From: Candidatus Dormiibacterota bacterium
GTDB taxonomy: Bacteria > Chloroflexota > Dormibacteria > Aeolococcales > Aeolococcaceae
Length of the DNA stretch: 64,000 bases
NCBI GenBank assembly: GCA_019245575.1
Contig: JAFARE010000029.1
Coordinates: 4,158 to 68,157 of the forward strand
Direction of reading: 5' to 3'
Positions 3,940-57,190 of the stretch are shown here, piece after piece. Under the pieces are notes generated by a model, which was not told the DNA's origin, made no database searches, and worked only from the letters and a program-made list of their open reading frames with translations. Every line of letters begins with the position of its first letter. Position 1 is the stretch's first letter. A program made the translations under genes and the position numbers.

Positions 3940-5131
3940 GCTCGACCCTGCGCTCCCCGCCGCCGAAGCCGCGGTGGACACGGCAGCGGTTGCAGACGCG
4001 TTCCTGCGCTGCTGGCAGGGGCCCGGCCCGGCGCCCTCGGTGCGCGAGTGCGCGCCGGCATATGTGCGCTGGTGGCCGGGCGCCGAGCTGGTGGCGACCT
4101 TCACGCTGAAGCTGGAGGCTCCGTCTCCGCCGGGAGCGACGCTGATCAGCGTGTCGGTCCGCCCCGAGGGGACGCGTTACGCGCTGCTCGCCGCTGACAT
4201 CGGGCTGGACGGGCTTTCGCGGGCGACCGACCCCACGGCGATGACACCGGTGCTGCGCGACGCACTGCGGAGGGACATCCCCGCGTGCGCCATCACACCG
4301 GTGCGCTACCGCCCCATGCGGCGGTGTGTGCTGCGCTTTGACGTCGCGCCGGATGCGGCATCGGAAAGCGTCTACGGCAAGGTCCTTCGCGCCACTGAGG
4401 CGACAGCGCTGGCCGTCACGCTCCCGCTGCTGGGCGACATGGTCGCTCCGGTGCTGGCCACGGTGCCGCAGTGGGGCCTGATCATCCAGGCGAGCACCGG
4501 CGGCGACAGCCTGAACCGCGTGGGCAAGTCCGCCGCCACGCACTCCGACCTCGAGATGGTTGCCGGCGCCGCCCGGCTGCTCGCCCGCCTGCACGGCGCG
4601 TCCATCGACGCCGCTTCACGCACGCTGCAGGACGACGCGCATTCGCTGCTCGAGTTCGCGCCGGCGTGCGAGCGTTTCGCCCCCGGCGTGGCGGCGCGCC
4701 TTCGCGACGCCGCCGGACGGGTCGGATCGTTCCCCTCCAGCGACGACCTGGTGCCGAGCCACGGCGCATTCCGCCTCGACCAGGTGCACATCACGCAACG
4801 GGGCCCGGTGCTCATCGACGTCGACTCCTTCTGCGCGTCGGAGCGCGAGCGCGACCTGGGCAATCTCTTTGCCTACCTGTGCTGGCGCGCGATCCGGCGG
4901 CCGGACGCCGGCGACGCCGTCGACAGCGTCCGGACTCAGTTCCTGTCCGCGTACGAGCGCGCCGCGTCGCGACGCGTCGACGCCGAGCGGCTGCGTCTGT
5001 ATGAGGCGGTGTCGCTCCTCAAGATCGCGGGACGGCGATACCCGCGGCTGAAGACCGCCGAGTGGCCGCTCGTGCCGCAGCTGATCGACGCGGCAATCAC
5101 GCTGCTCGCCCCCGCGCCGGTGGCGCGATGA
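3926..5131 (+). CDS. Mak/APH-fold phosphotransferase-like protein, paralog 2 (HGA variant)
   Basis: 401 aa. Motifs VPSHGAFRLDQVHI...LIDVDSFCASERERDLGNLFAYL. 14-nt overlap with paralog 1. Confidence 0.65.
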   Translation: MLPPELDPALPAAEAAVDTAAVADAFLRCWQGPGPAPSVRECAPAYVRWWPGAELVATFTLKLEAPSPPGATLISVSVRPEGTRYALLAADIGLDGLSRATDPTAMTPVLRDALRRDIPACAITPVRYRPMRRCVLRFDVAPDAASESVYGKVLRATEATALAVTLPLLGDMVAPVLATVPQWGLIIQASTGGDSLNRVGKSAATHSDLEMVAGAARLLARLHGASIDAASRTLQDDAHSLLEFAPACERFAPGVAARLRDAAGRVGSFPSSDDLVPSHGAFRLDQVHITQRGPVLIDVDSFCASERERDLGNLFAYLCWRAIRRPDAGDAVDSVRTQFLSAYERAASRRVDAERLRLYEAVSLLKIAGRRYPRLKTAEWPLVPQLIDAAITLLAPAPVAR

Positions 5132-6111
5132 GGCCGGCCCACACCGCCGAGGGCGCGCTGGACGCACTCCCCCGCTGCGTCGATGCCGCATACGTGTCCG
5201 CGCGCCTCGCCGAGGCAGGCGCCGGCGGCACCGTCCTGGCTGCGGATGTCGTGTCCATCGCGCCGGGGAAGCGAGCTGTGGTGCGCTACGCGGTTCGCTC
5301 CGCAGACGGCTCGGACGTCACATACATCGGCAAGCTCTACGCGGACAGCGCGCGCGCGCAGCGAGCGCACGACGTCATGGCGGCGGTGCACTCCGCGATC
5401 ACCCGCCATGACGGCCTCACCTCGCCGCATCCGGTGGTGCTGCTGGGCGACCTCGGGCTGCTGCTGCAATCCGCGGTGGCCGGCGCCACGCTCGACCGGG
5501 TCCCACCGCCGGAACGTGTCGCTGCTGCGCGCGGCGCCGGGCGATGGCTGGCCGCGTTGCACGGGTCGAGGCTGAAGCCGGATCGCGCCGTGAACCCGGA
5601 TTCGGAGGCGCGCAAGACGGCTGAGCGCGCAGCGCGGATCGCTGCATCCGACACGCGGCTGGCCGCCGCCGCCGCGCAGCTGCACCGCGCGGTTACGCAC
5701 GCGACCATCGATCCCCCGGCGTCTGGCGTGCCACTGCATCGAGACTTTCACTATCAGCACGTCGTCGTCGCGGGCGACACGGTCGCCGCGATCGACCTCG
5801 ACGAGGTGCGCGGCGGCGAAGCGGCAATCGACGTCGCCCACTTCTGCGCGTACCTCCACCTCCTTGTGATGCGCGAGGCAGGTGAGCAGGATCAGAGCGG
5901 CGCACTGGAGACGGCATTCCTCGGCGGGTATGCAGGCGATGCCGCACGCGCGCTCGACGCCCGCGAACGCGTCCATTTCGCCAACACGTGCCTCAAGCTC
6001 GCCGACCAGATCGTGCGCGGACGCGGCCCGGCGCCGGCGCCGGTCGGAGCGGATCGCACGCGTGAGGCAGCGTTCCTCCTGGAGGACGGCCGGAGATGCC
6101 TGGAGAGCTGA
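5128..6111 (+). CDS. Mak/APH-fold phosphotransferase-like protein, paralog 3 (HRD variant)
   Basis: About 327 aa, taken from the internal ATG at 5128 that overlaps the upstream stop (ATGA). Motifs LHRDFHYQHVVV...AIDLDEVRGGEAAIDVAHFCAYL. Confidence 0.6.
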   Translation: MRPAHTAEGALDALPRCVDAAYVSARLAEAGAGGTVLAADVVSIAPGKRAVVRYAVRSADGSDVTYIGKLYADSARAQRAHDVMAAVHSAITRHDGLTSPHPVVLLGDLGLLLQSAVAGATLDRVPPPERVAAARGAGRWLAALHGSRLKPDRAVNPDSEARKTAERAARIAASDTRLAAAAAQLHRAVTHATIDPPASGVPLHRDFHYQHVVVAGDTVAAIDLDEVRGGEAAIDVAHFCAYLHLLVMREAGEQDQSGALETAFLGGYAGDAARALDARERVHFANTCLKLADQIVRGRGPAPAPVGADRTREAAFLLEDGRRCLES

Positions 6112-32810: not shown

Positions 32811-34532
32811 ATGGCCGATCTCCTCGAGGCAGTCTCCGCCGAGGCCGCCGGCGCGTCGCCGCACGGCGCCCGCCTGCTGGCCCTCGCGCTTCGCGAGCAG
32901 GGGGTCACCACGCTGTTCACCCTGCCCGGCGGGCACATCCTCCAGCTGCTCGACGCCTGCCGCGACGAGGAGATCCGGGTCATCGACACGCGCCACGAGG
33001 GCGCAGCCGTGCTCGCCGCCGAGGGCTGGGCCCTCGCCACGGGCGAGCCGGGCGTCGCGGCGGTGACCGCAGGCCCGGGGTTCGCCAACGGCCTGGTGGG
33101 CCTGCTCGACGCGTCGGCCTGGAGCGTGCCCCTGCTGATGATCGCGGGCCGCACCGGCTACTCCCGCCAGGGGCGGGGCGCCGTGATGGACGTCGACCAG
33201 CGAGCCATCGCCGCGCCTGCGGCCAAGTGGGCGGCGACCTGCTACGAGGCGGGCCGGGCCGGACAGTACGCGGCGCAGGCCCTCCACGTGGCCCGCTCGG
33301 GGTGCCCGGGCGGCGCGTACCTCGAGGTGCCGTGGGACGTGATGCGGACGGCGCCGGCTCCGCTGGACGTCACCCCGGGCGGGTACCCCGACCAGCCAGC
33401 TCGCCCGGCGGCCGCGCCCGCTGACATCGGCGCCGCGCTCGCCGCCCTGGCGCGGGCACGGCGGCCGCTGATCGTCGCCGGCAGCGGCGCCTTCTGGTCC
33501 GGCGCCGGCGAGGAGATCGCCGCCTTTGCCGAGGAGGCCTCGATCCCTGTGATCACGGCCAGCGCCGCCCGTGGCGTGGTCGCCGATTCCCACCCATGGT
33601 CGCTGGGCTCGCTGGTCCATGGCGGCGTGGCGCTGCCCAGCGCGGACTGCGTGCTCCTGCTCGGCTCCGCCTTCAACGCCAACGTGCTGTACGGGGCTCC
33701 TCCCCTCTTCGGCGCCGAGCAGACTGTGATCCAGGTCGATGTCGCCGCCGAGCGGATCGGGGGCAACCGTCTGCCCGAGGTGCCCGTCGTGGGTGACGTG
33801 GCCCAGGTGGTGCGCGACCTGCGCGCCGCCTGGCGCGGTGGGAGCAGCGAGGGAGCGGCCTGGCTGGAGCAGGCGCGCGGCCTTGTCCGGGCGTCGCTCG
33901 GCTTCTGGGACCAGCAGATCGACGGCCACTCCGGCTCGCAGCTGCACGCGGGCCGGGTGGCGCGCGAGACCGCCGCGTACGTGCGCGAGCGGTTCGGCGG
34001 CGACATCACCCTGGTGGCCGACGGCGGCGACGCTCTCGCGTGGGCGCTCGGCTACTTCCCCGCCGAACGGCCGGGCAGCCTGCTCACCACCACGACCGCC
34101 CTCGGCACTCTGGGCGTGGGCATGCCCTTCGCCCTGGCTTCCGGCGCCGCCCACCCCGGCACGCCCACGCTGCTCTTCACCGGCGACGGCTCCTTCGGCC
34201 TCACCGCGATGGAGGTGGACACGGCCGTGCGCCACGGGCTGCCCATCGTCGTCGTGGTGTCGAACAACGCCGGATGGGGCGACGTGCGCCACGAGCAGGA
34301 CGCGTTCTTCGGCCCCGGCCGCCATGTGGCCAGCGAGCTCGCCGCCACCCGGTACGACAAGCTCGGGGAGGCGCTCGGCGCCGTCGGCGAGCACGTGGAC
34401 CGCATCGAGGAGCTGCGGCCGGCGCTCGACCGCGCCTTCGACAGCGGCCGGTGCACCGTGATCGACGTCACCACCGACCCCACGGTGCTGGCCGAGCTGC
34501 TGCGCATCATGGGCTCGGCGGGCCTCATGTAG
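32811..34532 (+). CDS. Thiamine diphosphate-dependent enzyme (acetolactate synthase large-subunit-like)
   Basis: 573 aa. ThDP motif GDGSFGLTAMEVDTAVRHGLPIVVVVSNN. N-terminal pyrimidine-binding domain. Confidence 0.8.
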   Translation: MADLLEAVSAEAAGASPHGARLLALALREQGVTTLFTLPGGHILQLLDACRDEEIRVIDTRHEGAAVLAAEGWALATGEPGVAAVTAGPGFANGLVGLLDASAWSVPLLMIAGRTGYSRQGRGAVMDVDQRAIAAPAAKWAATCYEAGRAGQYAAQALHVARSGCPGGAYLEVPWDVMRTAPAPLDVTPGGYPDQPARPAAAPADIGAALAALARARRPLIVAGSGAFWSGAGEEIAAFAEEASIPVITASAARGVVADSHPWSLGSLVHGGVALPSADCVLLLGSAFNANVLYGAPPLFGAEQTVIQVDVAAERIGGNRLPEVPVVGDVAQVVRDLRAAWRGGSSEGAAWLEQARGLVRASLGFWDQQIDGHSGSQLHAGRVARETAAYVRERFGGDITLVADGGDALAWALGYFPAERPGSLLTTTTALGTLGVGMPFALASGAAHPGTPTLLFTGDGSFGLTAMEVDTAVRHGLPIVVVVSNNAGWGDVRHEQDAFFGPGRHVASELAATRYDKLGEALGAVGEHVDRIEELRPALDRAFDSGRCTVIDVTTDPTVLAELLRIMGSAGLM

Positions 34533-35525
34533 ATGCGCGCCGTCGAGCTGCTCGACGCGCACCGGCTCGAGGTCGTCGAGCTCCCCGACCCCGAGCCCGG
34601 CGAGGGCGAGGTCGTGGTCCGGGTCGACGGCTGCGGCATCTGCGGCTCCGACCTGAGCTCGTACAAGGTGGGCCTGTTCACCGACGCGGTGCCGGGCCAC
34701 GAGTTCTCGGGGACGGTCGAGGCCCTGGGCGCGGGCGTGAGCGGCTGGCAGACAGGCGACCCGACGGTGGTCGATCCCAAGATGCCCTGCGGCGCCTGCG
34801 AGGATTGCCGGGCGGGCGCCGCGTGGCGCTGCTCCGTCGCCCTCACCGCGGGGCTGGGCTTCGCCCGCAACGGCGGCTTCGCCGAGCGCGTGCTGGCGCC
34901 GGCGCACCTGCTGCACCGCCTGCCGGAGCAGCTCTCCCTGCGCGACGCCTGCCTGGTGGAGCCTCTGTCCATCGCGATCCACGGGGTGGAGCGCACCCGC
35001 CTCGACGGCGGGGCTGCGGTGGTGATCGGGCTCGGGCCGATCGGGCTCTTCACCGTGGCCGTGCTCCGCGCCCGCGGCGTGGAGCCGATCATCTGCGTCG
35101 ACCCCGTGCCCGACCGCCGCCGTCTGGCGCTCGACCTCGGCGCCGCCACATCCCTGGAGGAGGCCACCGAGGTGCGCCGGACCGTCGCTCCGGCGCCCAA
35201 CGTGTTCGAGTGCTCCGGCTACGCGCCGGTCCTGCACACCGCCGCCGACCTCGTCGCCCCGGGCGGCACGATGGTGATGCTCGGCGTCCCCTTCGGCGAA
35301 GCCCAGGTGGCGCCGCTGATGTGGGTGACCCGCGAGATCACGATCGTCGGCAGCATCGCCTCGAGCGAGCAGGACTTCCGCGACTCCATCGCGATGCTGG
35401 CCGCCGACCCGTCGCTGGCTCGCATCGTCACGCGACGCATCGGCCTCGCCGACGTGCCCGCCTCTTTCGAGGAGCTCATCCACCCGACCGAGGGCGGAAA
35501 GGTGGTCGTCGATCCGTCCCTGTGA
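34533..35525 (+). CDS. Zinc-dependent alcohol dehydrogenase (MDR, threonine/sorbitol dehydrogenase-like)
   Basis: 330 aa. GHEFSG (catalytic Zn) and CGACEDC (structural Zn) motifs. Starts 1 nt after the upstream stop. Confidence 0.85.
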   Translation: MRAVELLDAHRLEVVELPDPEPGEGEVVVRVDGCGICGSDLSSYKVGLFTDAVPGHEFSGTVEALGAGVSGWQTGDPTVVDPKMPCGACEDCRAGAAWRCSVALTAGLGFARNGGFAERVLAPAHLLHRLPEQLSLRDACLVEPLSIAIHGVERTRLDGGAAVVIGLGPIGLFTVAVLRARGVEPIICVDPVPDRRRLALDLGAATSLEEATEVRRTVAPAPNVFECSGYAPVLHTAADLVAPGGTMVMLGVPFGEAQVAPLMWVTREITIVGSIASSEQDFRDSIAMLAADPSLARIVTRRIGLADVPASFEELIHPTEGGKVVVDPSL

Positions 35526-48198: not shown

Positions 48199-49092
48199 AT
48201 GCCGCAGCCGCTGCTGGAACGCATCGCGCGCAGTCAGAACTGGCTGGAACCCACGGCCGACTGGCTGCAGAAGCTCGTCACCGGAATCTACTCGGGCCTC
48301 GGAGGATCCGGCCGGCAGCTCAAGAGCCTGCTGAACGGCACCTTCATCCTTCGCCATCCGCTCCATCCCGCCCTCACCGACGTGCCGATCGGCGCGTGGA
48401 CGGTCGGCGTCATCGCGGATTACGCGGCGCACTTCACCAGCCGCATCCCGGAGTCGGCCGGCGACATCGCCCTCGCCGTCGGCCTCATCGTCGCTCTGGC
48501 AGCGCTGATCACCGGCTACACCGACTTCATGGACACACTCGCGCTGGAGCGGCGCTTCGCCACGGCGCATGGACTCACCATGACGCTGGTCATCGCAATC
48601 GACGCGGTGTCGATGTTCCTGCGCTGGTTCGCCGGCGCGGGCGCGCACCCCGTCGCCGTGGCGCTGTCGACCGTCGGCTGGGTGCTAGTCCTCGTGGGTG
48701 CCTGGTACGGCGGCCACGTCGTGTTCGGCACCGGTTACGCGGTCAACCGTGAAGCGTTCCTGGACGGCCCCAGCGACTGGGCCGACGCCGGCGCTGCGGC
48801 CGACATCCCGGTCGCCGGTCTCCACGTTGCCGAGGCCGGCGGCATGCAGGTGCTGCTGGTGCGCGAAGGCGCACGGATCTGCGCGCTCTCCGACGTGTGC
48901 TCGCACGCGGGCGGCCCGCTGCACGAGGGCACACTCCAGAACGGGATCGTGCAGTGTCCATGGCACAGCTCGCGGTTCCGCATCCGCGACGGGCGCGCCG
49001 TCGGGGGGCCCGCCACCTTCGATCAGCCGGTGCTCGAGGTGCGCGAGGTCGACGGCCGAGTCATGGTGAAGCTGGAGTCGCCGCTGCACTGA
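48199..49092 (+). CDS. Rieske [2Fe-2S] domain protein fused to an N-terminal multi-TM domain
   Basis: 297 aa. Four hydrophobic segments, then Rieske motifs CSHAGGPL and CPWHSSRF. Confidence 0.7.
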   Translation: MPQPLLERIARSQNWLEPTADWLQKLVTGIYSGLGGSGRQLKSLLNGTFILRHPLHPALTDVPIGAWTVGVIADYAAHFTSRIPESAGDIALAVGLIVALAALITGYTDFMDTLALERRFATAHGLTMTLVIAIDAVSMFLRWFAGAGAHPVAVALSTVGWVLVLVGAWYGGHVVFGTGYAVNREAFLDGPSDWADAGAAADIPVAGLHVAEAGGMQVLLVREGARICALSDVCSHAGGPLHEGTLQNGIVQCPWHSSRFRIRDGRAVGGPATFDQPVLEVREVDGRVMVKLESPLH

Positions 49093-49123: not shown

Positions 49124-51169
49124 ATGGCACGGCGGATCCTGGTGGCGACCGACCTGTCCGACACGGCGTCGGAAGCCGTGCGCTGGGCCGCCGACAGCGC
49201 CAGGCGCGACGCCGCCGAGCTCGTGCTGCTGCGTGTCGCGGCACCCGAGCACCCGGATGCGGCGGCTTCGACCGAGGATGTGCATCCGCTGCCGGACTCA
49301 CAGCTCACGTCGATTGCGCAGGAGCTCGCGGGCAAACGTGGCCGCGGCCTGGTTGTCGCCTCCGCGGACGCGGCTGAGGCGATCGTTCACGTCGCCGAAC
49401 AGGAGCGCGTCGACCTCATCGTGTGCGGCAACGTGGGCATGCGCGGGCGCAAGGAGTTCCTGCTGCACAACGTGCCCAACCGCGTGTCGCACATGGCGCG
49501 CTGCAGCGTCGTGCTGGTGAACACGGCGGGCGAGGGTGAGGATGGGCACCGGCCGCACTTCCACCGCCACCGGCCCGCGCCGCATGTGGCGGCCGATCCG
49601 GAGCAGTACGAGGGACAGATGCTCGGGCGCGCAGCCGAGATCGGACGTGTCGTCGCCGCGCTCGGCGTGCGCGAGGCGTTCACGGCGCGGCGGCACCACG
49701 ACCTCGCCCGCGAGGCACAGCTCCTGCGCGCGTCGCTGGAGAAGCTCGGGCCCACCTTCGAGAAATTGGGTCAGATGCTGTCCACCCGCCCCGATCTCCT
49801 GCCCCGCTAGTTCATCGCAGAGCTCGAGACGCTGCAGGACGACGTCCCGCCGCTCACGCAGGCGGAAGTCGTGCGCGTCATGGAGGAGGAGCTGCACGTC
49901 CCCTGGGAGGACGTGTTCGAGAGCATCGAGCCGCAGCCAATCGCCGCGGGAACCATCGCGCAGGTGCATCGGGCCGTGCTCGCCGGCGGCGACCACGTCG
50001 TGGTGAAGGTGCAGCGCCCCAGCGCGGAGGAGGAGATGGGCAAGGACCTCGCGCTGCTGCAGCTGTTCGGCCAGCGCGCGCGCGGCCGCGTGGGTTTCGA
50101 GCAGATCGTCGACCTGCCCGCGATCATCGACTCGCTGACGGAGTCACTGCAGCGCGAGCTCGACTTCACGCAGGAGGCGCACAACCTGGAGCGGATGCGC
50201 GAGGTGCTGGAGCCGTTCAGCCGCCTCGACGTCCCCCGCGTCTACGGCGACTACTCGACGCACCGTCTCCTCGTGATGGAGGATGTCGAAGGCGTGCCGC
50301 TGCTTGAGTCGGAAGCGTCAGCCGAGCGCAACGAGGCAGCGATCCAGCTCGTCGAGTCCTACTACCAGCAGGTGCTCACCGCGGGCTTCTTCCACGCCGA
50401 TCCGCACCCGGGAAACCTGATGTGGTGGAACGACAAGATCTACATGCTCGACCTGGGCATGGTCGGCGAGATCGACGATCCGACCCGGGAGCTGCTCGGC
50501 TTCCTGCTCCTGGCGTTCTGGCGCGAGGACGTCGCCTTCCTTGCCGACGTGATCCTGATGCTGGCGGAACGACACGGGTCGGTGCAGGAGGAGGCATTCC
50601 ACGCGGAGCTCGGCGACTTGGTGCAGCGCTACCGCCATCTCGCGCTGGAGCAGTTCCGCATGGGCGCCATGCTGCAGGACCTCACCGAGCTCTGCGTGCG
50701 TCACGGGATTCGCATGCCCGCGTCACTCGCGCTCATCGGCAAGGCGCTGGGACAGATGCAGCTGGCCGCGGCGAGCGTCGACCCCGGCATCGACCCGTTC
50801 GCGGTGGCGGGGCGGTTTTTCACGCGGCGTCTCACCACCAACGTGCGCGACATGCTCGGCCCACACCGCCTCTTCTACAACGCGCAGAAGGTGCGCCTGC
50901 GCGTCAACAGCCTGCTCGCGTCACTGGAGAAGCTCACCGGCGCGCGTCCCGGGTTCGAGCCGCGCGTGGTCTTCAGCGGAACCGAGCGGCTGGAGAACAC
51001 GATCCGGCGGGCCGCGCGGCGACTGGCGCTCTCATTCGTCGGCACCGGCGCGTTCCTGGTGTGCGGGCTCACCGCCAGCTTCGGTCACGTGGCGCCGTGG
51101 GTCACCGCGTTGTTCGGCGCCGTGGGCGGCCTCTTCGCCGCAGTCTTCCTGATCGACCTGCTCCACTGA
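49124..51169 (+). pseudogene. Universal stress protein (UspA) domain fused to an ABC1/UbiB-family atypical kinase, interrupted by one in-frame TAG (49808-49810)
   Basis: ORFs 49124..49810 and 49871..51169 are in the same frame. The sequence reads ...[47 protein letters not shown], a contiguous match to the conserved UbiB N-terminal motif (KLGQ.LSTR.DL.P.EY..EL..LQD.VPP). The TAG sits where Glu (GAG) is expected. Downstream are HADPHPGNL and a C-terminal TM segment. Confidence 0.5.
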
Positions 51170-51363: not shown

Positions 51364-53103
51364 TCAAGCGCCGGTCGCCGGCGCCTCACCCCACACGGCG
51401 ACGGAGTCGGGGACGAGCGTCCACGCGGTCTCGTTGAGGACCGGCTGGGAGACGAGCATCAGCGGCCGGCCGGCCGCCTCGCGCACGGTCAGCGCATCGC
51501 CGCCCAGGTTGCACGCAACCAGCAGCCCGGCGACCTCGAGAAAGAGCGCGCGACGGGTGTTGTCGCACCACGACCGCACGGATGACGGGAAGCAGTCGCC
51601 CAGCGCCAGCGCGCGGCGCAAGGCGATCAGCGCGCGATACCACCGCAGCATCGCGTCATGCTCCGGCTCCCCAACCTCGTCCCAGCGCAGCTTCGACCGC
51701 TCGAAGGTCGCGACTGCCTGCGGGTCCGGGACGTCCTCGGGCCTCCAGCCGAACTCGCGAAACTCGCTGCGGCGCCCCTCGCTCACCGCGCGCTGCACCT
51801 GGGGATCGCCGAAGTCGGTGAAGTACTGGAACGGCGTGCCCGCGCCCCACTCCTCGCCCTGAAACAGCAGCGGCACCGACGGCGCCAGCAGCGTGAGTGC
51901 GGCGGCGATGCGCATGCGCCCGGGGGTCACGAGCGCGTTCAGCCGGTCACCCGCGGCGCGGTTGCCGACCTGGTCGTGGTTCTGCGCATACCCCACGAAG
52001 CGCGCCAGGGGCATCTCGCCGATCGAGCGGCCGAAGCTGCGGCGCCGGAAATGCGAGTACTGACCCGTGTACACGAACGCCTGACGCAGCGCGGTGGCGA
52101 CGTCGTCGAGCGAGCCGAAGTCGAGGTAGTAGCCGTTGCGCTCGCCGCTGAGAGCGGCATGCAGCGCGTGATGGAAGTTGTCGTTCCACTGCGCGTGCAG
52201 CCCATAGCCTCCCAGACGCCGCTCCGACACCAGCCGTGGGTCGTTGGCGTCGCTCTCCGCGATGATCCACAGGTCCCGTCCCAGTTCGTCGCCCAATGCC
52301 TCAACGCGCGTGGCCAGCTCCTCGAGGATGTGCGTGGCGGAGGTGTCGGTGATGGCGTGCACCGCGTCCAGGCGGAGGCCGTCGCAGTGGTAGTCGCGCA
52401 GCCACATGAGGGCGTTGTCCACGATGAACTCGCGCACCCAGTCGCTGTCCTCGCCATCCAGGTTGAACGCCTGTCCCCACGGCGTCGCGTACCGGTCGGT
52501 GAAGTACGGCGCGTACGAGCCCAGATAGTTGCCCTCCGGCCCGACGTGGTTGTAGACGGCGTCGATGACGACGGCGAGTCCTCGCGCGTGGCACGCGTCG
52601 ACAAGCTGCTTCAGACCGTCGGGGCCGCCGTACGCGCTGTGCGGCGCGAAGAGATCGACCCCGTCGTAGCCCCAGCCGCGCGACCCTGCGAACTGCGCCA
52701 TCGGCATCAGCTCCACCGCGGTGACGCCGAGATCGCGCACATGGTCGAGACGCTCGATGGCGGAGGCGAATGTGCCCTCTGGCGTGAAGGTTCCGACGTG
52801 CAACTCATAGATGACCGCGTTGCGCAGGGGCGAGCCGTGCCACCCTGCATCCGTCCACGGGAATGCGCTGTGGTCGACCAGCTGCGACAGCCCGTGCACG
52901 CCGTCGGGCTGCGCGGGCGACCGTGGGTCGGGCAGCGGATCGCCGCCGTCGATGCTGAAGCCGTAGCGATCGCCAGGCGCGGCGCTCTCGACGGCGAGCT
53001 CCCACCATCCGCCGTCACCGACGCGCATGTCGCTCTCCTCGCCGTTGTGATGCAGGCGGACGCGCTGCGCGGCGAGGGCCCACACGCGAAAGGTGTGACT
53101 CAT
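51364..53103 (-). CDS. treZ: Malto-oligosyltrehalose trehalohydrolase
   Basis: 579 aa. GH13 with TreZ-type N-terminus TFRVWALAAQRVRL. Catalytic regions GLRLDAVHAI and EL...HDQ. ATGA overlap with the treY stop. Confidence 0.85.
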   Translation of the reverse strand: MSHTFRVWALAAQRVRLHHNGEESDMRVGDGGWWELAVESAAPGDRYGFSIDGGDPLPDPRSPAQPDGVHGLSQLVDHSAFPWTDAGWHGSPLRNAVIYELHVGTFTPEGTFASAIERLDHVRDLGVTAVELMPMAQFAGSRGWGYDGVDLFAPHSAYGGPDGLKQLVDACHARGLAVVIDAVYNHVGPEGNYLGSYAPYFTDRYATPWGQAFNLDGEDSDWVREFIVDNALMWLRDYHCDGLRLDAVHAITDTSATHILEELATRVEALGDELGRDLWIIAESDANDPRLVSERRLGGYGLHAQWNDNFHHALHAALSGERNGYYLDFGSLDDVATALRQAFVYTGQYSHFRRRSFGRSIGEMPLARFVGYAQNHDQVGNRAAGDRLNALVTPGRMRIAAALTLLAPSVPLLFQGEEWGAGTPFQYFTDFGDPQVQRAVSEGRRSEFREFGWRPEDVPDPQAVATFERSKLRWDEVGEPEHDAMLRWYRALIALRRALALGDCFPSSVRSWCDNTRRALFLEVAGLLVACNLGGDALTVREAAGRPLMLVSQPVLNETAWTLVPDSVAVWGEAPATGA

Positions 53104-55508
53104 GGCGCGAGCACCAGGAGCGCCACCGGGAACTCGTGCAGCAGCTCGCCGAGGCCCACCCGGCCCCCGGTGATGCCGTCACCGGTGAGCGCGTTGCGCC
53201 ATGTGCCGCCCGGAATCTCCAGGGAGGTGTCAGCCCAGTCGCCATGCACCGAGTGGGCCAGGCGCACGGCTACAGTGACAACGCCTGCACTCGCGCCGTG
53301 CTCGCCGCGCGCATAGGCGACCACGTGCCCCGCCCGGGCGCCGTCTGCGAGCAGCGGCTGGTACCACGAGCGCTCGCCGAACACCGGGGGCCGCTCGGCG
53401 CGCACGCGCAGCGCTGTGCGGATCAGATGGAGCTTGGGCACGCCCTCGGCCGCGCGCTGCATGATCTGCGCTCCGCTCAGCCCGTCCAGCTCGCGCAGCA
53501 GGCGGCGGCGCAGCTCGTAGTCGACCGGCGTGCGGTTGTCGGGGTCGACCAGCCGCAGATCCCACAGCTCGCTTCCCTGGTAGATGTCAGGGACGCCCGG
53601 GCTCGTCAGCTTGAGCAGCGTCTGCGACAGCGACGCCACCTGCCACTCCGGAGTTATGGAATCGACAAGTCCTTGCACCTCGACGCTGATCGATGCGTGG
53701 TTGACGACTCCGCGGACGAACGTGTCCAGAGCCGCCTCGTAGGACGAATCGGGGTCGAGCCAGCTCGTCTCCCGCTTGGCTTCGCGAGCGGCCTTGAGCA
53801 GGTATGCGCAGGCCCGGTCCGCATCGAGAGGATGCGCGCCGACCAGCGTCTGATACAGCAGATATTCGGCGGAGCGCGACGGTGCTCCCTCGCTGCGGTA
53901 AGGAGCAGCCCACTCACTCCATCGCCGCACCGCGTCCATCCACGCATCCGGCATCTCCGAGAGCATCACGATGCGCACCCGGGCGTCCTCACCCCGCTTC
54001 GTGTCGTGCGTGGACGTGGCGAGGAGCGTCAGCGGCCGGCGTCTCGCGATGCGAACGGCGGAGGCATGCAGATCGGTCACGCCATCCACATGGCAGGGAT
54101 CCGAGCCCACCTCGTTCAGCGAGACCAGAGGCACGTCGCGATAGAAGGCGGTGTCCTCCACACCCTTCGCCATCACCGCCGAGCTCACCTGCTGGAAGCG
54201 GGTGCGCAACTCGACGGCCGCGTCAACAAGCGTGCCGTCGCCGGCGAGCACGCTCACCAGCGCGTCGAGACGATCTTCGTCGCACCGGCCCGACGAGCGC
54301 GCCGACGTGACGGCCTGGTCCAGCACCCGCCGGTCGGCTTCGCGCAGCCCGTCCGCGCGAGACGGATACATCCGGTACACCGGCATGCCGCAGAGCAGCT
54401 CTTCCAGCTCAGCTGCTGCGCCGGGGATGTCCGCTGCCTCCGCCGCACGCGTGAGCCGTCCCAGCTCGGACTGCAGCAGCTCCCTCAGGACCGCGCGACG
54501 TGAGTCGTACGACACATGCGCGAAGCCGCCGTCGTCGCCGGCGAACGCCGCATACGCGGCCCGCATCGCGCGCAGGCCTCGGTCATCGATGCCGAGCGCT
54601 CCGGCACGCTCGATGAACTCGTACCCCGTCGTTCCCGCGACATCCCAGCCCTCGGGCAGCTCCTCATCTGCTGCGAGGATCTTCTCCACCACGATCCAGG
54701 CGTCGGGCGCTGCGCGGCGGAGCCGCGCGAGATACCCGCCCGGATCGCGCAGGCCGTCGACGTGGTCCACGCGGAGACCATCCACGACCCCGTCGCTCAC
54801 CAGCCGCAGGACGCGCTCGTGCACAGCGTCGAACACGCGCGCATCCTCGACGCGCACGCCAGCGAGCGAAGCGATGTCGAAGAAGCGCCGGTAGTTGATG
54901 CGGCGCAGTCCTGTGCGCCAGTGCTCGAGCACGTAGTGCTGCCGCTGCAGCAGGGTGAGATCGACCGCGGCTGCATCGCCGGCGTCAGCGTCGCGCAGCG
55001 GAAAACGCGTCTCGAAATAGCTGAGCTCGGGGCCGCGGGCACCCGGCTCGAGGCGCAGCTCGCCCTTCGCCAGCACGGTTTCGAGCGGATCGCCCAGCAC
55101 GGGCAGCAGGACCCGGCCCTCCAAACCGGGAGCCTCCCACTCGACGTCGAAGAAGTCCGCGTACGGGCTGGCCCGCCCCTGACGAAGCACATCCCACCAC
55201 CACCGGTTGAGCGGTGAGCTCACGCACATGTGATTGGGCACGATGTCGAGCAGCTGTCCCATCCCGTGCGTGCGCAGCGCCCCGTCCAGCAGCCCGAGCC
55301 CCTCCTCCCCGCCCAGGTCGTCGCTCACATGCGTGGGATCCACCACGTCATAGCCGTGCGTGCTCCCGGGCGCCGCCTGCATGTACGGCGAGCAGTACAG
55401 GTGACTCACACCCAGCGCAGCGAGATACGGGATGATCTGCGTTGCCGCCGCGAAATCGAACTCAGCGCGCAGCTGCACGCGGTACGTGCAGCGGGGTTGC
55501 GTCCTCAC
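53100..55508 (-). CDS. treY: Malto-oligosyltrehalose synthase
   Basis: About 802 aa from the GTG (VRTQPRCTYRVQLRAEFDF..., the TreY N-terminal TYRLQ pattern) that overlaps the malQ stop (GTGA). The 142-codon upstream extension of the ORF is non-coding-like. Confidence 0.8.
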   Translation of the reverse strand: MRTQPRCTYRVQLRAEFDFAAATQIIPYLAALGVSHLYCSPYMQAAPGSTHGYDVVDPTHVSDDLGGEEGLGLLDGALRTHGMGQLLDIVPNHMCVSSPLNRWWWDVLRQGRASPYADFFDVEWEAPGLEGRVLLPVLGDPLETVLAKGELRLEPGARGPELSYFETRFPLRDADAGDAAAVDLTLLQRQHYVLEHWRTGLRRINYRRFFDIASLAGVRVEDARVFDAVHERVLRLVSDGVVDGLRVDHVDGLRDPGGYLARLRRAAPDAWIVVEKILAADEELPEGWDVAGTTGYEFIERAGALGIDDRGLRAMRAAYAAFAGDDGGFAHVSYDSRRAVLRELLQSELGRLTRAAEAADIPGAAAELEELLCGMPVYRMYPSRADGLREADRRVLDQAVTSARSSGRCDEDRLDALVSVLAGDGTLVDAAVELRTRFQQVSSAVMAKGVEDTAFYRDVPLVSLNEVGSDPCHVDGVTDLHASAVRIARRRPLTLLATSTHDTKRGEDARVRIVMLSEMPDAWMDAVRRWSEWAAPYRSEGAPSRSAEYLLYQTLVGAHPLDADRACAYLLKAAREAKRETSWLDPDSSYEAALDTFVRGVVNHASISVEVQGLVDSITPEWQVASLSQTLLKLTSPGVPDIYQGSELWDLRLVDPDNRTPVDYELRRRLLRELDGLSGAQIMQRAAEGVPKLHLIRTALRVRAERPPVFGERSWYQPLLADGARAGHVVAYARGEHGASAGVVTVAVRLAHSVHGDWADTSLEIPGGTWRNALTGDGITGGRVGLGELLHEFPVALLVLAP

Positions 55509-57190
55509 CGGCCGGCGGCGCGCATCGTCGCGGCGATGTTCCGCGCCAATGTGCTGCGGCGCAGCTGGTCGAGCGTCAGCGGCAGCGGTAGCGACCAGTT
55601 GTCGCGCTCCGTCGCGCCCGGCAGATTGGGTCGTCGCGGCGCCGCCGCCGCGTCCTCCAGGGTCACCGACAGGAGGCGCGACGGCGCTGCGCCGAGCTCC
55701 GCGTAGGCGCGCTCCACCACCGACGACGTGGGCGCGCGGTCGGGCAGCGCCGTCAGCCTCCGCAGGCGGCGGCGCAGCCGCAGCTCCGCCTCGAGATTGA
55801 TGGGCCTGCCGCTGGCTGCCAGCTCGTCGATGTCCGCGCCGGTCCACACGCCGGTCACGGTGGGGAGGTCGTGTGTTGTCATCGCGGCCATCGCCTCCAC
55901 GGGGTATCGCTCCGGCCGTGCTCGCTCGAACCACATCACGCGATACGACAGCACGCCGCGGCGGCGGAGCTGTGCGCGAACACCGGTCTCGACCGTGCCC
56001 AGGTCCTCACCGACGACGTAGGCACTCGCTCGCGCGCTCTCCTCGGCGATGACGTCGAGCAGCTCGTGCCATGGATAGCGCACGTAGGCGCCACCGCGCG
56101 CATCCGACTCCGCCGGGATCCACCAGAGGCGGAACAGCCCCATCACATGGTCGATGCGCACGCCTGCGCCGAGACGAAGCAGCCGGTGCAACATTTCGCG
56201 CAGCGGGCGGTAGCCGGCGTCGCGGAGCCTGTGCGGGTCGAACGGCACGAGACCCCAATTCTGCCCGCCGGGGCTGAACTCGTCGGGCGGTGCGCCGATG
56301 CGCGCGCCGAATGCCATCACGTCGTGCCACATCCACGCGTCGGCGCCGTCGGGTGACGTGCCCACCGCGAGGTCGTGCACCAGCGGGATGGTCCGCGCCG
56401 CGCGCGCCAGCTGGGTGTCGGTCTGCCACTGCAGCCAGCGATGGAAGTCGACGCGCCGGCGCTCCCGCTCGGCGATGCGACGCACCGCGGCCGACCCCGG
56501 TGACTGCAGTGCGCGCGGCCACTGCCGCCAGGGTTTGCGCCGCTGCTCCGCGATCACGCAGTGCGTCGCGTACCGCAACAGCGCCTCGCCCTCCGACGCG
56601 CAGTACGCGTCGAAGCGGCGGTCGCCGCCAAACCGCGTCCACAGGTGCTCCAGCGCCTGCATCTTCAGGGCGAAGATGGCATCGCGCTGGATCACCGGCG
56701 ATGCGTTGAGGGCGCGGCCCTCGCGCTGCAGCCGGCGCACCAGCGGCGACTCGGTCGCGCCGGGGATCGCCTCCACTCGCAGGTACAGCGGGTTGCGGAA
56801 CAGCCGGCTCGACGGAAAGTACGGGCTCGCCTCCTGCGGCAGCCACGGCTGGGGCGCGTGCAGCGGATTCAGCATCAGCATCGACGCTCCCAGCCCCGAG
56901 GCCCAGCGCCCCAGCGCCGCGAGGTCGTCGAGGTCGCCCATCCCCCAGCTGCGCCGCGACCGAAGCGCATACAGCTGCGCCGCCCATCCCCAGCCCCGCT
57001 CCGGCGCCGGATGGCAGCGCGCAACCGGCCCGCGGCGGGCTCCCGATGGCTCGCCTGGGGGCGCGGCGCCGTCCGCGCCCAGCGCGTCCAGCACCGCGCG
57101 CACCGACCGCTGTGGCACCGTACGCCGGGTGCCCGTCGCGTCAACGTATTCCGTCTGCACGCCCCAGCGGGCTGCATCCGATCGCCGCAT
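55505..57190 (-). CDS. malQ: 4-alpha-glucanotransferase (amylomaltase)
   Basis: About 561 aa from the internal ATG (MRRSDAARWGVQTEYVDATG). GH77 motifs WGMGDLDDLAALGRWASGLGASMLMLNPLHA and VRIDHVMGLFRLWWIP. Confidence 0.8.
   Translation of the reverse strand: MRRSDAARWGVQTEYVDATGTRRTVPQRSVRAVLDALGADGAAPPGEPSGARRGPVARCHPAPERGWGWAAQLYALRSRRSWGMGDLDDLAALGRWASGLGASMLMLNPLHAPQPWLPQEASPYFPSSRLFRNPLYLRVEAIPGATESPLVRRLQREGRALNASPVIQRDAIFALKMQALEHLWTRFGGDRRFDAYCASEGEALLRYATHCVIAEQRRKPWRQWPRALQSPGSAAVRRIAERERRRVDFHRWLQWQTDTQLARAARTIPLVHDLAVGTSPDGADAWMWHDVMAFGARIGAPPDEFSPGGQNWGLVPFDPHRLRDAGYRPLREMLHRLLRLGAGVRIDHVMGLFRLWWIPAESDARGGAYVRYPWHELLDVIAEESARASAYVVGEDLGTVETGVRAQLRRRGVLSYRVMWFERARPERYPVEAMAAMTTHDLPTVTGVWTGADIDELAASGRPINLEAELRLRRRLRRLTALPDRAPTSSVVERAYAELGAAPSRLLSVTLEDAAAAPRRPNLPGATERDNWSLPLPLTLDQLRRSTLARNIAATMRAAGR

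Follow-up and report, generated by a model that had tools for sequence, protein, structure and literature searches.

Proteins of the UbiB/ABC1/ADCK (COQ8) family (PF03109, TIGR01982) have an atypical kinase-like domain that is preceded by a conserved KxGQ motif. In COQ8, the Gln of this invariant motif holds an active-site water, membrane binding depends on the KxGQ domain, and mutations in this domain abolish ATPase activity, respiratory growth, and coenzyme Q (CoQ) synthesis (bioRxiv 10.1101/149823). We analyzed a 64,000-nucleotide stretch of Candidatus Dormibacteraeota DNA (assembly GCA_019245575.1, contig JAFARE010000029.1; hereafter ‘the window’, to which coordinates refer unless another contig is named). 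A gene on its forward strand, at 49124–51169, encodes a universal stress protein (Usp) domain fused to an ABC1 domain and is interrupted by a single in-frame amber codon; the nearest family members with solved structures are human COQ8A/ADCK3 (4PED, 5I35), Mycobacterium tuberculosis Rv3197/MABP-1 (5YJZ), and M. smegmatis MSMEG_1954 (7CY2). The amber codon is most probably a recent nonsense mutation (E229*) in the Usp-UbiB/ABC1 gene of one Candidatus Dormibacteraeota population, that is, an ordinary young loss-of-function allele or pseudogene and not a new mechanism. An original prediction, made from the letters of the window, had listed four possibilities for the amber codon (a recent nonsense pseudogene, a sequencing error, programmed readthrough, and a re-initiated split gene); the first of these fits the evidence best.

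A single amber codon interrupts a Usp-ABC1 gene

Read directly from the sequence, the frame opens with ATG at 49124, encounters TAG at 49808–49810, and is otherwise open to TGA at 51167–51169; the gene therefore consists of 681 sense codons and one internal stop, and both the interruption and the translation agree with those first reported. From its N-terminus, the encoded protein has a Usp domain, a linker rich in His, an atypical kinase-like domain of the UbiB/ABC1 type, and, at the C-terminus, a pair of hydrophobic helices. The Usp domain (residues 1–132, 49124–49519) matches PF00582 with 89.1 bits (E = 5e-25; gathering cut-off, 24 bits), and the ABC1 kinase-like core (residues 237–471, 49832–50536) matches PF03109 with 210.6 bits (E = 2.6e-62; gathering cut-off, 22.9 bits). 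The KxGQ motif, the signature of the UbiB family, reads K214-L-G216-Q217 (49763–49774) and is encoded upstream of the stop. K214, G216, and Q217 are invariant in an alignment of 24 sequences (A1), as are the core residues K295, E345, the HADPHPGN loop (residues 424–431), and D443, all of which are present; from knowledge of the family, we take K295 to be the beta3 Lys, E345 the alphaC Glu, D426 and N431 the catalytic-loop Asp and Asn, and D443 the metal-binding Asp. Two long helices at the C-terminus (residues 621–653 and 658–680, 50984–51163), recognized from the secondary structure of a predicted model and from their hydrophobic sequence, probably form a membrane anchor; E. coli UbiB also has C-terminal hydrophobic helices.

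The stop is located 12 residues past the Gln of KxGQ. In the 24-sequence alignment it is flanked by blocks of invariant columns (residues 208–225 and 234–241), and no other stretch of the N-terminal part is as conserved as the region around it. The original prediction had placed the stop inside the most conserved N-terminal motif; this is correct for its surroundings, but the stop position itself varies. TIGR01982 (UbiB, NCBIfam) aligns with residues 188–572, that is, across the stop; the two flanks share one frame and belong to one gene, as had been proposed. A functional UbiB/ABC1 gene requires an uninterrupted reading frame, and the TAG at 49808–49810 breaks it; the gene carries no other lesion.

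The stop is also the only one of its kind in the window: a screen for stops with coding-like flanks in the same frame found no other genuine internal stop in the 64 kb. The scan for interrupted genes, based on GC content at third codon positions (GC3), was noisy, with high GC3 also in antisense frames; the five same-frame pairs of open reading frames (ORFs) that remained, four on the forward and one on the reverse strand, were inspected by hand and are ordinary gene boundaries with their own start codons (e.g., ...GLM*MRAVELL at 34530). No paralog of the Usp-ABC1 gene was found in the window. A promoter/terminator scan found no internal promoter; it identified one terminator-like site inside the coding region (50794–50811), a number within the range of shuffled sequences (mean 0.3, standard deviation 0.7).

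In the annotation, the gene appears as two. The truncated product (49124–49810, 228 residues) is annotated as ‘universal stress protein’ (MBV9101079.1, MBV9524391.1), and the downstream ORF (49871–51169, 432 residues from a GTG start; P0016) as ‘AarF/ABC1/UbiB kinase family protein’ (MBV9101080.1, MBV9524392.1); a second gene caller begins the downstream ORF at ATG 49880 (429 residues; P0123). The 20 codons that separate the stop from the first canonical start (49811–49870) encode the invariant residues L234, L237, Q238, D239, and V241.

The ancestral codon is GAG

The two closest intact orthologs, on contigs L004 and L006 (89% and 88% amino acid identity), read GAG at the aligned codon: the orthologs have CCG CGT GAG TTC and CCC CGC GAG TTC where the window has CCC CGC TAG TTC. 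The L004 ortholog (P0122) is an intact protein of 681 residues from a Logan assembly and shares a 90% cluster with the window protein; the L006 ortholog (P0001) is from another Dormibacteraeota metagenome-assembled genome (MAG). In the alignment, the stop position is occupied by Glu in all 18 close-clade homologs and by Ala or Pro in more distant Actinomycetota. Because the nearest orthologs read GAG and all of the close homologs carry Glu, the change is GAG to TAG (E229*), a G-to-T transversion at 49808. The original prediction had anticipated both the Glu codon and the single-base change, and had pointed to related orthologs as the place to find the GAG; they contain it.

The amber allele recurs in five assemblies

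The TAG is present in five contigs, that is, in two NCBI MAGs (the window and L001, GCA_019242035.1) and in three ENA assemblies (L002, ERZ27313884; L003, ERZ27313819; L005, ERZ27313774); all five carry CTCCTGCCCCGCTAGTTCAT. These contigs were identified by exact-sequence lookup: the 228-residue product was found on four contigs and the 429-residue downstream product on a fifth, and the 432-residue product (P0016) gave none. The allele is found in every sampled contig of this population. No near-identical intact allele was found among the database matches (a collection of 5.8 billion clusters), and scans of JGI metagenome contigs for exact patterns with the flanks of this lineage found neither the TAG nor the GAG allele.

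The five contigs are not copies of one assembly, because single-nucleotide polymorphisms (SNPs), a deletion, or a divergent tail set them apart. L001 shows no difference from the window over 6.7 kb (100% identity). L005 differs from the window by one synonymous SNP at 52009, in the neighboring alpha-amylase-family gene; L003 has one SNP, at 48505, and lacks 1 bp at 49919 (TTCGAGAGC to TTCAGAGC). The deletion is 110 nt past the TAG and would frameshift the downstream ORF; if real, it adds a second lesion, in the part of the gene that is not translated. Up to 50070, L002 differs from the window only by a SNP at 48789; its remainder (window 50071–50640) diverges by ~13%, with most of the differences at third codon positions, and has its closest match (91%) in the lineage of L006, so L002 either joins two co-occurring Dormibacteraeota in a chimeric assembly or is a recombinant. 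Among the five, three are k141 contigs (MEGAHIT-style). A random consensus error is an unlikely source of the stop, since the same TAG would not recur in all five assemblies; the sequencing error considered in the original prediction is disfavored by this recurrence.

The flanks of the stop are intact and the mutation is young

Compared with the L004 ortholog, the ratio of nonsynonymous to synonymous substitution rates (dN/dS) of the window gene is 0.126 upstream and 0.085 downstream of the stop (synonymous rate, dS, ~0.66); compared with the L006 ortholog, the values are 0.146 and 0.114 (dS ~0.56). For L004 against L006, both of which are intact, dN/dS is 0.119 for the whole gene. The window gene has one private change at an otherwise invariant column (Q512R), and most intact homologs have 0–4, with 8–12 in three of them; it departs from the consensus at five of the columns that are at least 90% conserved, and the intact homologs at 3–17. 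Relaxed constraint is not detectable in the window gene.

Because the flanks of the stop are without decay, the mutation is young; decay would not be expected in any case, because the TAG contigs differ so little from one another (at most ~1 SNP per 4.7 kb). The intact flanks speak for the youth of the mutation and not for retained function.

Predicted consequences of the nonsense mutation

Translation from ATG 49124 would end after 228 residues and yield a product that comprises Usp, the linker, and the initial helices of the KxGQ domain. The kinase-like core and, with it, the membrane helices would be absent, or would be made only as N-terminally truncated products from GTG 49871 or ATG 49880; such a restarted product would have neither the KxGQ motif nor the invariant ELxxLQD segment. 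By homology with COQ8, a kinase core that is parted from its KxGQ domain should be inactive, and the truncated products are presumably non-functional. The expected outcome would be loss of the kinase/ATPase function in a gene whose remainder has had too little time to decay. The allele would then be neutral or tolerated, so that this Dormibacteraeota population would tolerate the loss of its Usp-UbiB protein.

Alternative explanations for the amber codon

Several points weigh against a recent loss of function. Both halves of the gene are perfectly intact, which is also compatible with a functional split or with readthrough. Genuine genes in the window are also weak in Shine-Dalgarno (SD) complementarity, so the strength of a ribosome-binding site cannot exclude a restart downstream of the stop. 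Recurrence was judged from assembled contigs, and the three ENA assemblies could share a sequencing project with the MAGs. Finally, the deletion in L003 is 106 nt from the end of the contig and may be an assembly error. Considered jointly, a functional split, low-level readthrough, and an artefact retain a modest share of the probability.

A functional split, in which the 228-residue Usp fragment and a re-initiated kinase fragment work as two polypeptides, is unlikely. The downstream ORF is intact and is called by gene callers, and in an AlphaFold2 model KxGQ is located in a predicted helix (residues 210–219) and the stop in the loop that follows (residues 220–230), not within a helix. Also, some relatives have separate, translationally coupled Usp and ABC1 genes. 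This two-gene form is found in several Gaiellaceae/Actinomycetes genomes (L022, L025–L028, L030, L031), with the two parts in different frames; the Usp part corresponds to query residues 3–138, and the ABC1 part begins at residue ~161–165. In L028, a Usp ORF of 141 residues (3959–4384 of that contig) has a GTGA overlap with an ABC1 ORF of 526 residues (4381–5961) that starts before the KxGQ domain (MSAAADQRLLGRAARI...LGPTFAKLGQILSTRPDL...); L025 is similar.

These relatives, however, divide elsewhere. Because they divide in the linker (residues ~138–165), the linker after the Usp domain is the natural boundary, and the whole KxGQ domain stays on the kinase polypeptide; because both two-gene and fused forms exist, the fusion or fission occurred at this linker, just after Usp. 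The break in the window is ~65–90 residues further in: KxGQ is on the Usp fragment, and residues 229–249, including the invariant L234, L237, Q238, D239, and V241, are on neither fragment if canonical starts are used. The first canonical restarts, GTG 49871 (codon 250) and ATG 49880 (codon 253), are 20–23 codons past the stop; a closer restart would need ATC 49814 or CTG 49832, codons that bacteria very rarely use as starts. The energies of the SD duplexes (−2.4 to −5.5 kcal/mol for true starts, −5.8 for the candidate restarts) do not discriminate between the two, so we dropped the strength of the ribosome-binding site as an argument. Neither the best 120 database clusters nor the 24-sequence alignment contains an ortholog that is split at residue 229 with its own start; ~115 of the 120 clusters are full-length, and this organism alone has a split entry. 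The naturally split gene of the original prediction is, therefore, not supported.

That the amber codon is a selected functional state that uncouples Usp from the kinase is, in our judgment, quite unlikely. If this were true, the locus would yield a free Usp-KxGQ fragment together with either a kinase that starts internally and lacks KxGQ or a little full-length protein from UAG readthrough; nature would then have provided an experiment on how a UbiB-family ATPase can be regulated or re-wired.

Readthrough or recoding of the UAG (through leaky termination, a tRNA that suppresses amber codons, or pyrrolysine) would provide some full-length protein and keep the gene working at a lower or regulated level; we consider it very unlikely. 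The rest of the gene is undamaged, and the position accepts Glu, Ala, or Pro in homologs, so most inserted residues would probably be tolerated. However, the locus shares with programmed readthrough and with pyrrolysine decoding only an in-frame UAG in a conserved gene, and it differs from both in several respects. The stop is not conserved, that is, the sister lineages read GAG and the close homologs have Glu. TAG is a normal terminator nearby; it ends seven other probable genes in the window, which argues against its reassignment. No tRNA gene, and so no tRNA-CUA, was found by ARAGORN in the 64-kb window, the part of the genome that was scanned. The 111 nt around and after the stop contain no stimulatory RNA structure (minimum free energy −42.3, compared with a mean of −43.1 for shuffled sequences; z = 0.22). 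The base that follows the stop is T (TAG-T), and U after a stop is said, from the work of Poole, Brown and Tate, to be an efficient-termination context in E. coli and not a leaky one. The gene thus has no recoding signature, and the programmed readthrough of the original prediction is not supported.

An assembly or sequencing artefact, in which the organism's codon is GAG and the T arose as an error in the consensus, is equally remote: MAGs do contain errors, and in this family the homologous genes in four long-read ‘MFD’ MAGs (L034, L036, L037, L039) have one to three frame changes and P0010 (810 residues) has a divergent, frameshifted C-terminus, but these are probably long-read indel errors, whereas the change at 49808 is a substitution, the TAG is reproduced in five contigs of differing length and content from five assemblies, and GAG occurs in no contig of this lineage among the database matches and the JGI contig scans.

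Family, fold, and domain architecture

The AlphaFold2 model (mean pLDDT 70, that is, moderate confidence) contains a Usp domain, a disordered His-rich linker, a kinase-like domain, and the two C-terminal helices; the Usp domain is modeled as an alpha/beta fold with strands at residues 4–8, 32–39, 74–79, 98–101, and 130–133. With Foldseek, the top matches of the model are 4PED, 7UDQ, and 5I35 (all COQ8A/ADCK3), 7CZ2, and 5YK1 (E-values 1e-17 to 1e-15), with E-values of ~1e-17 and target-normalised TM-scores of 0.68–0.75 for 4PED and 7UDQ; the fold search thus groups the model with COQ8A, MSMEG_1954, and Rv3197. A sequence search of the PDB agrees with the fold search; its best matches are 5YJZ (E = 9.6e-30), 7CY2, and 4PED. 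The scores of the protein are below the equivalog cut-offs for UbiB proper (TIGR01982, 303.9 compared with 487.55; NF003404, 214.2 compared with 667), so it belongs to the broad ABC1 family without being an ortholog of the UbiB of the ubiquinone pathway.

The fusion of Usp to ABC1 had been described in the original prediction as an unusual architecture, but it is found in many phyla. In ~115 of the 120 best 90%-identity clusters, the proteins have 676–728 residues and both Pfam domains in the same order; full-length matches are found in species representatives that are labeled Dormibacteraeota, Actinomycetota, Nitrospira, Nitrosomonas, Bryobacteraceae, Terriglobia, and Chloroflexia. A search of the representative library with the 228-residue fragment returned mostly fragments at contig ends and gave no usable count of the fused family. 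In IMG, the fusion is named ‘predicted unusual protein kinase regulating ubiquinone biosynthesis / nucleotide-binding universal stress UspA family protein’; no published description of it was found in the literature that we searched. The Usp-ABC1 fusion is, therefore, common but uncharacterised.

The His-rich linker between Usp and the kinase (RPHFHRHRPAPHV, consensus PHFHHHR; window 49550–49600, residues ~143–160) is conserved in the Dormibacteraeota-like clade, whereas the Actinomycetota clade lacks it; this segment could bind metal or sense pH. The ATP-binding class of Usp proteins (UspFG/MJ0577) has the motif G-x2-G-x9-G-[ST]. The window gene instead encodes G102-x2-G105-x9-H115-N116 (residues 102–116, 49427–49471), so the Usp module may not bind ATP canonically; N116 is invariant across the Usp-ABC1 family.

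Genome neighborhood

Immediately upstream of the Usp-ABC1 gene, on the same strand (48199–49092), is a gene for a DUF2231 membrane domain fused to a C-terminal Rieske [2Fe-2S] domain. This gene order is kept in the closest relative (L004) and not in distant ones; because it is found only in the closest relative, we did not use it to infer function. Downstream, two overlapping genes of the alpha-amylase family (579 and 944 residues; 51364–55934, reverse strand) converge on the Usp-ABC1 gene. Their Pfam matches are limited to Alpha-amylase, CBM_48, and DUF3459; from our own reading of the sequences, we take the pair to resemble genes for trehalose synthesis (treZ/treY-like).

Throughout the window, SD complementarity is weak before credible starts (−2.4 to −5.5 kcal/mol), and there are several genes that overlap the next one or leave no gap to it (e.g., TAG-ATG at 34530–34535). 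These two observations together suggest that translation initiation here depends little on SD sites.

Significance and comparison with known systems

As a result of the amber codon, GenBank lists one disrupted gene as two intact proteins (228 and 432 residues) in two Candidatus Dormibacteraeota MAGs, and fragments of the disrupted gene are now cluster representatives in protein databases. As a single young loss-of-function allele in a soil bacterium known without cultivation, it carries little biological weight. Both the Usp-ABC1 fusion and the two-gene form occur widely across soil phyla; no published description of either was found in the literature that we searched, and they are a mildly useful pointer for studies of UbiB-family regulation. 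We found no literature on the source accessions or on Dormibacteraeota pseudogenes.

Compared with the UbiB/ABC1/ADCK (COQ8) family, the gene encodes the same KxGQ motif, ELxxLQD segment, and core residues (K295, E345, HADPHPGN, and D443); it differs in its N-terminal Usp domain and in a frame that is broken at residue 229. Within the Usp-ABC1 fusion subfamily, the window copy is alone in its close clade in having an internal stop. Nothing distinguishes the window gene from ordinary bacterial nonsense pseudogenes: one base substitution created the stop, sister lineages reveal the ancestral codon, the gene is otherwise undamaged, and annotation pipelines call two coding sequences in place of one.

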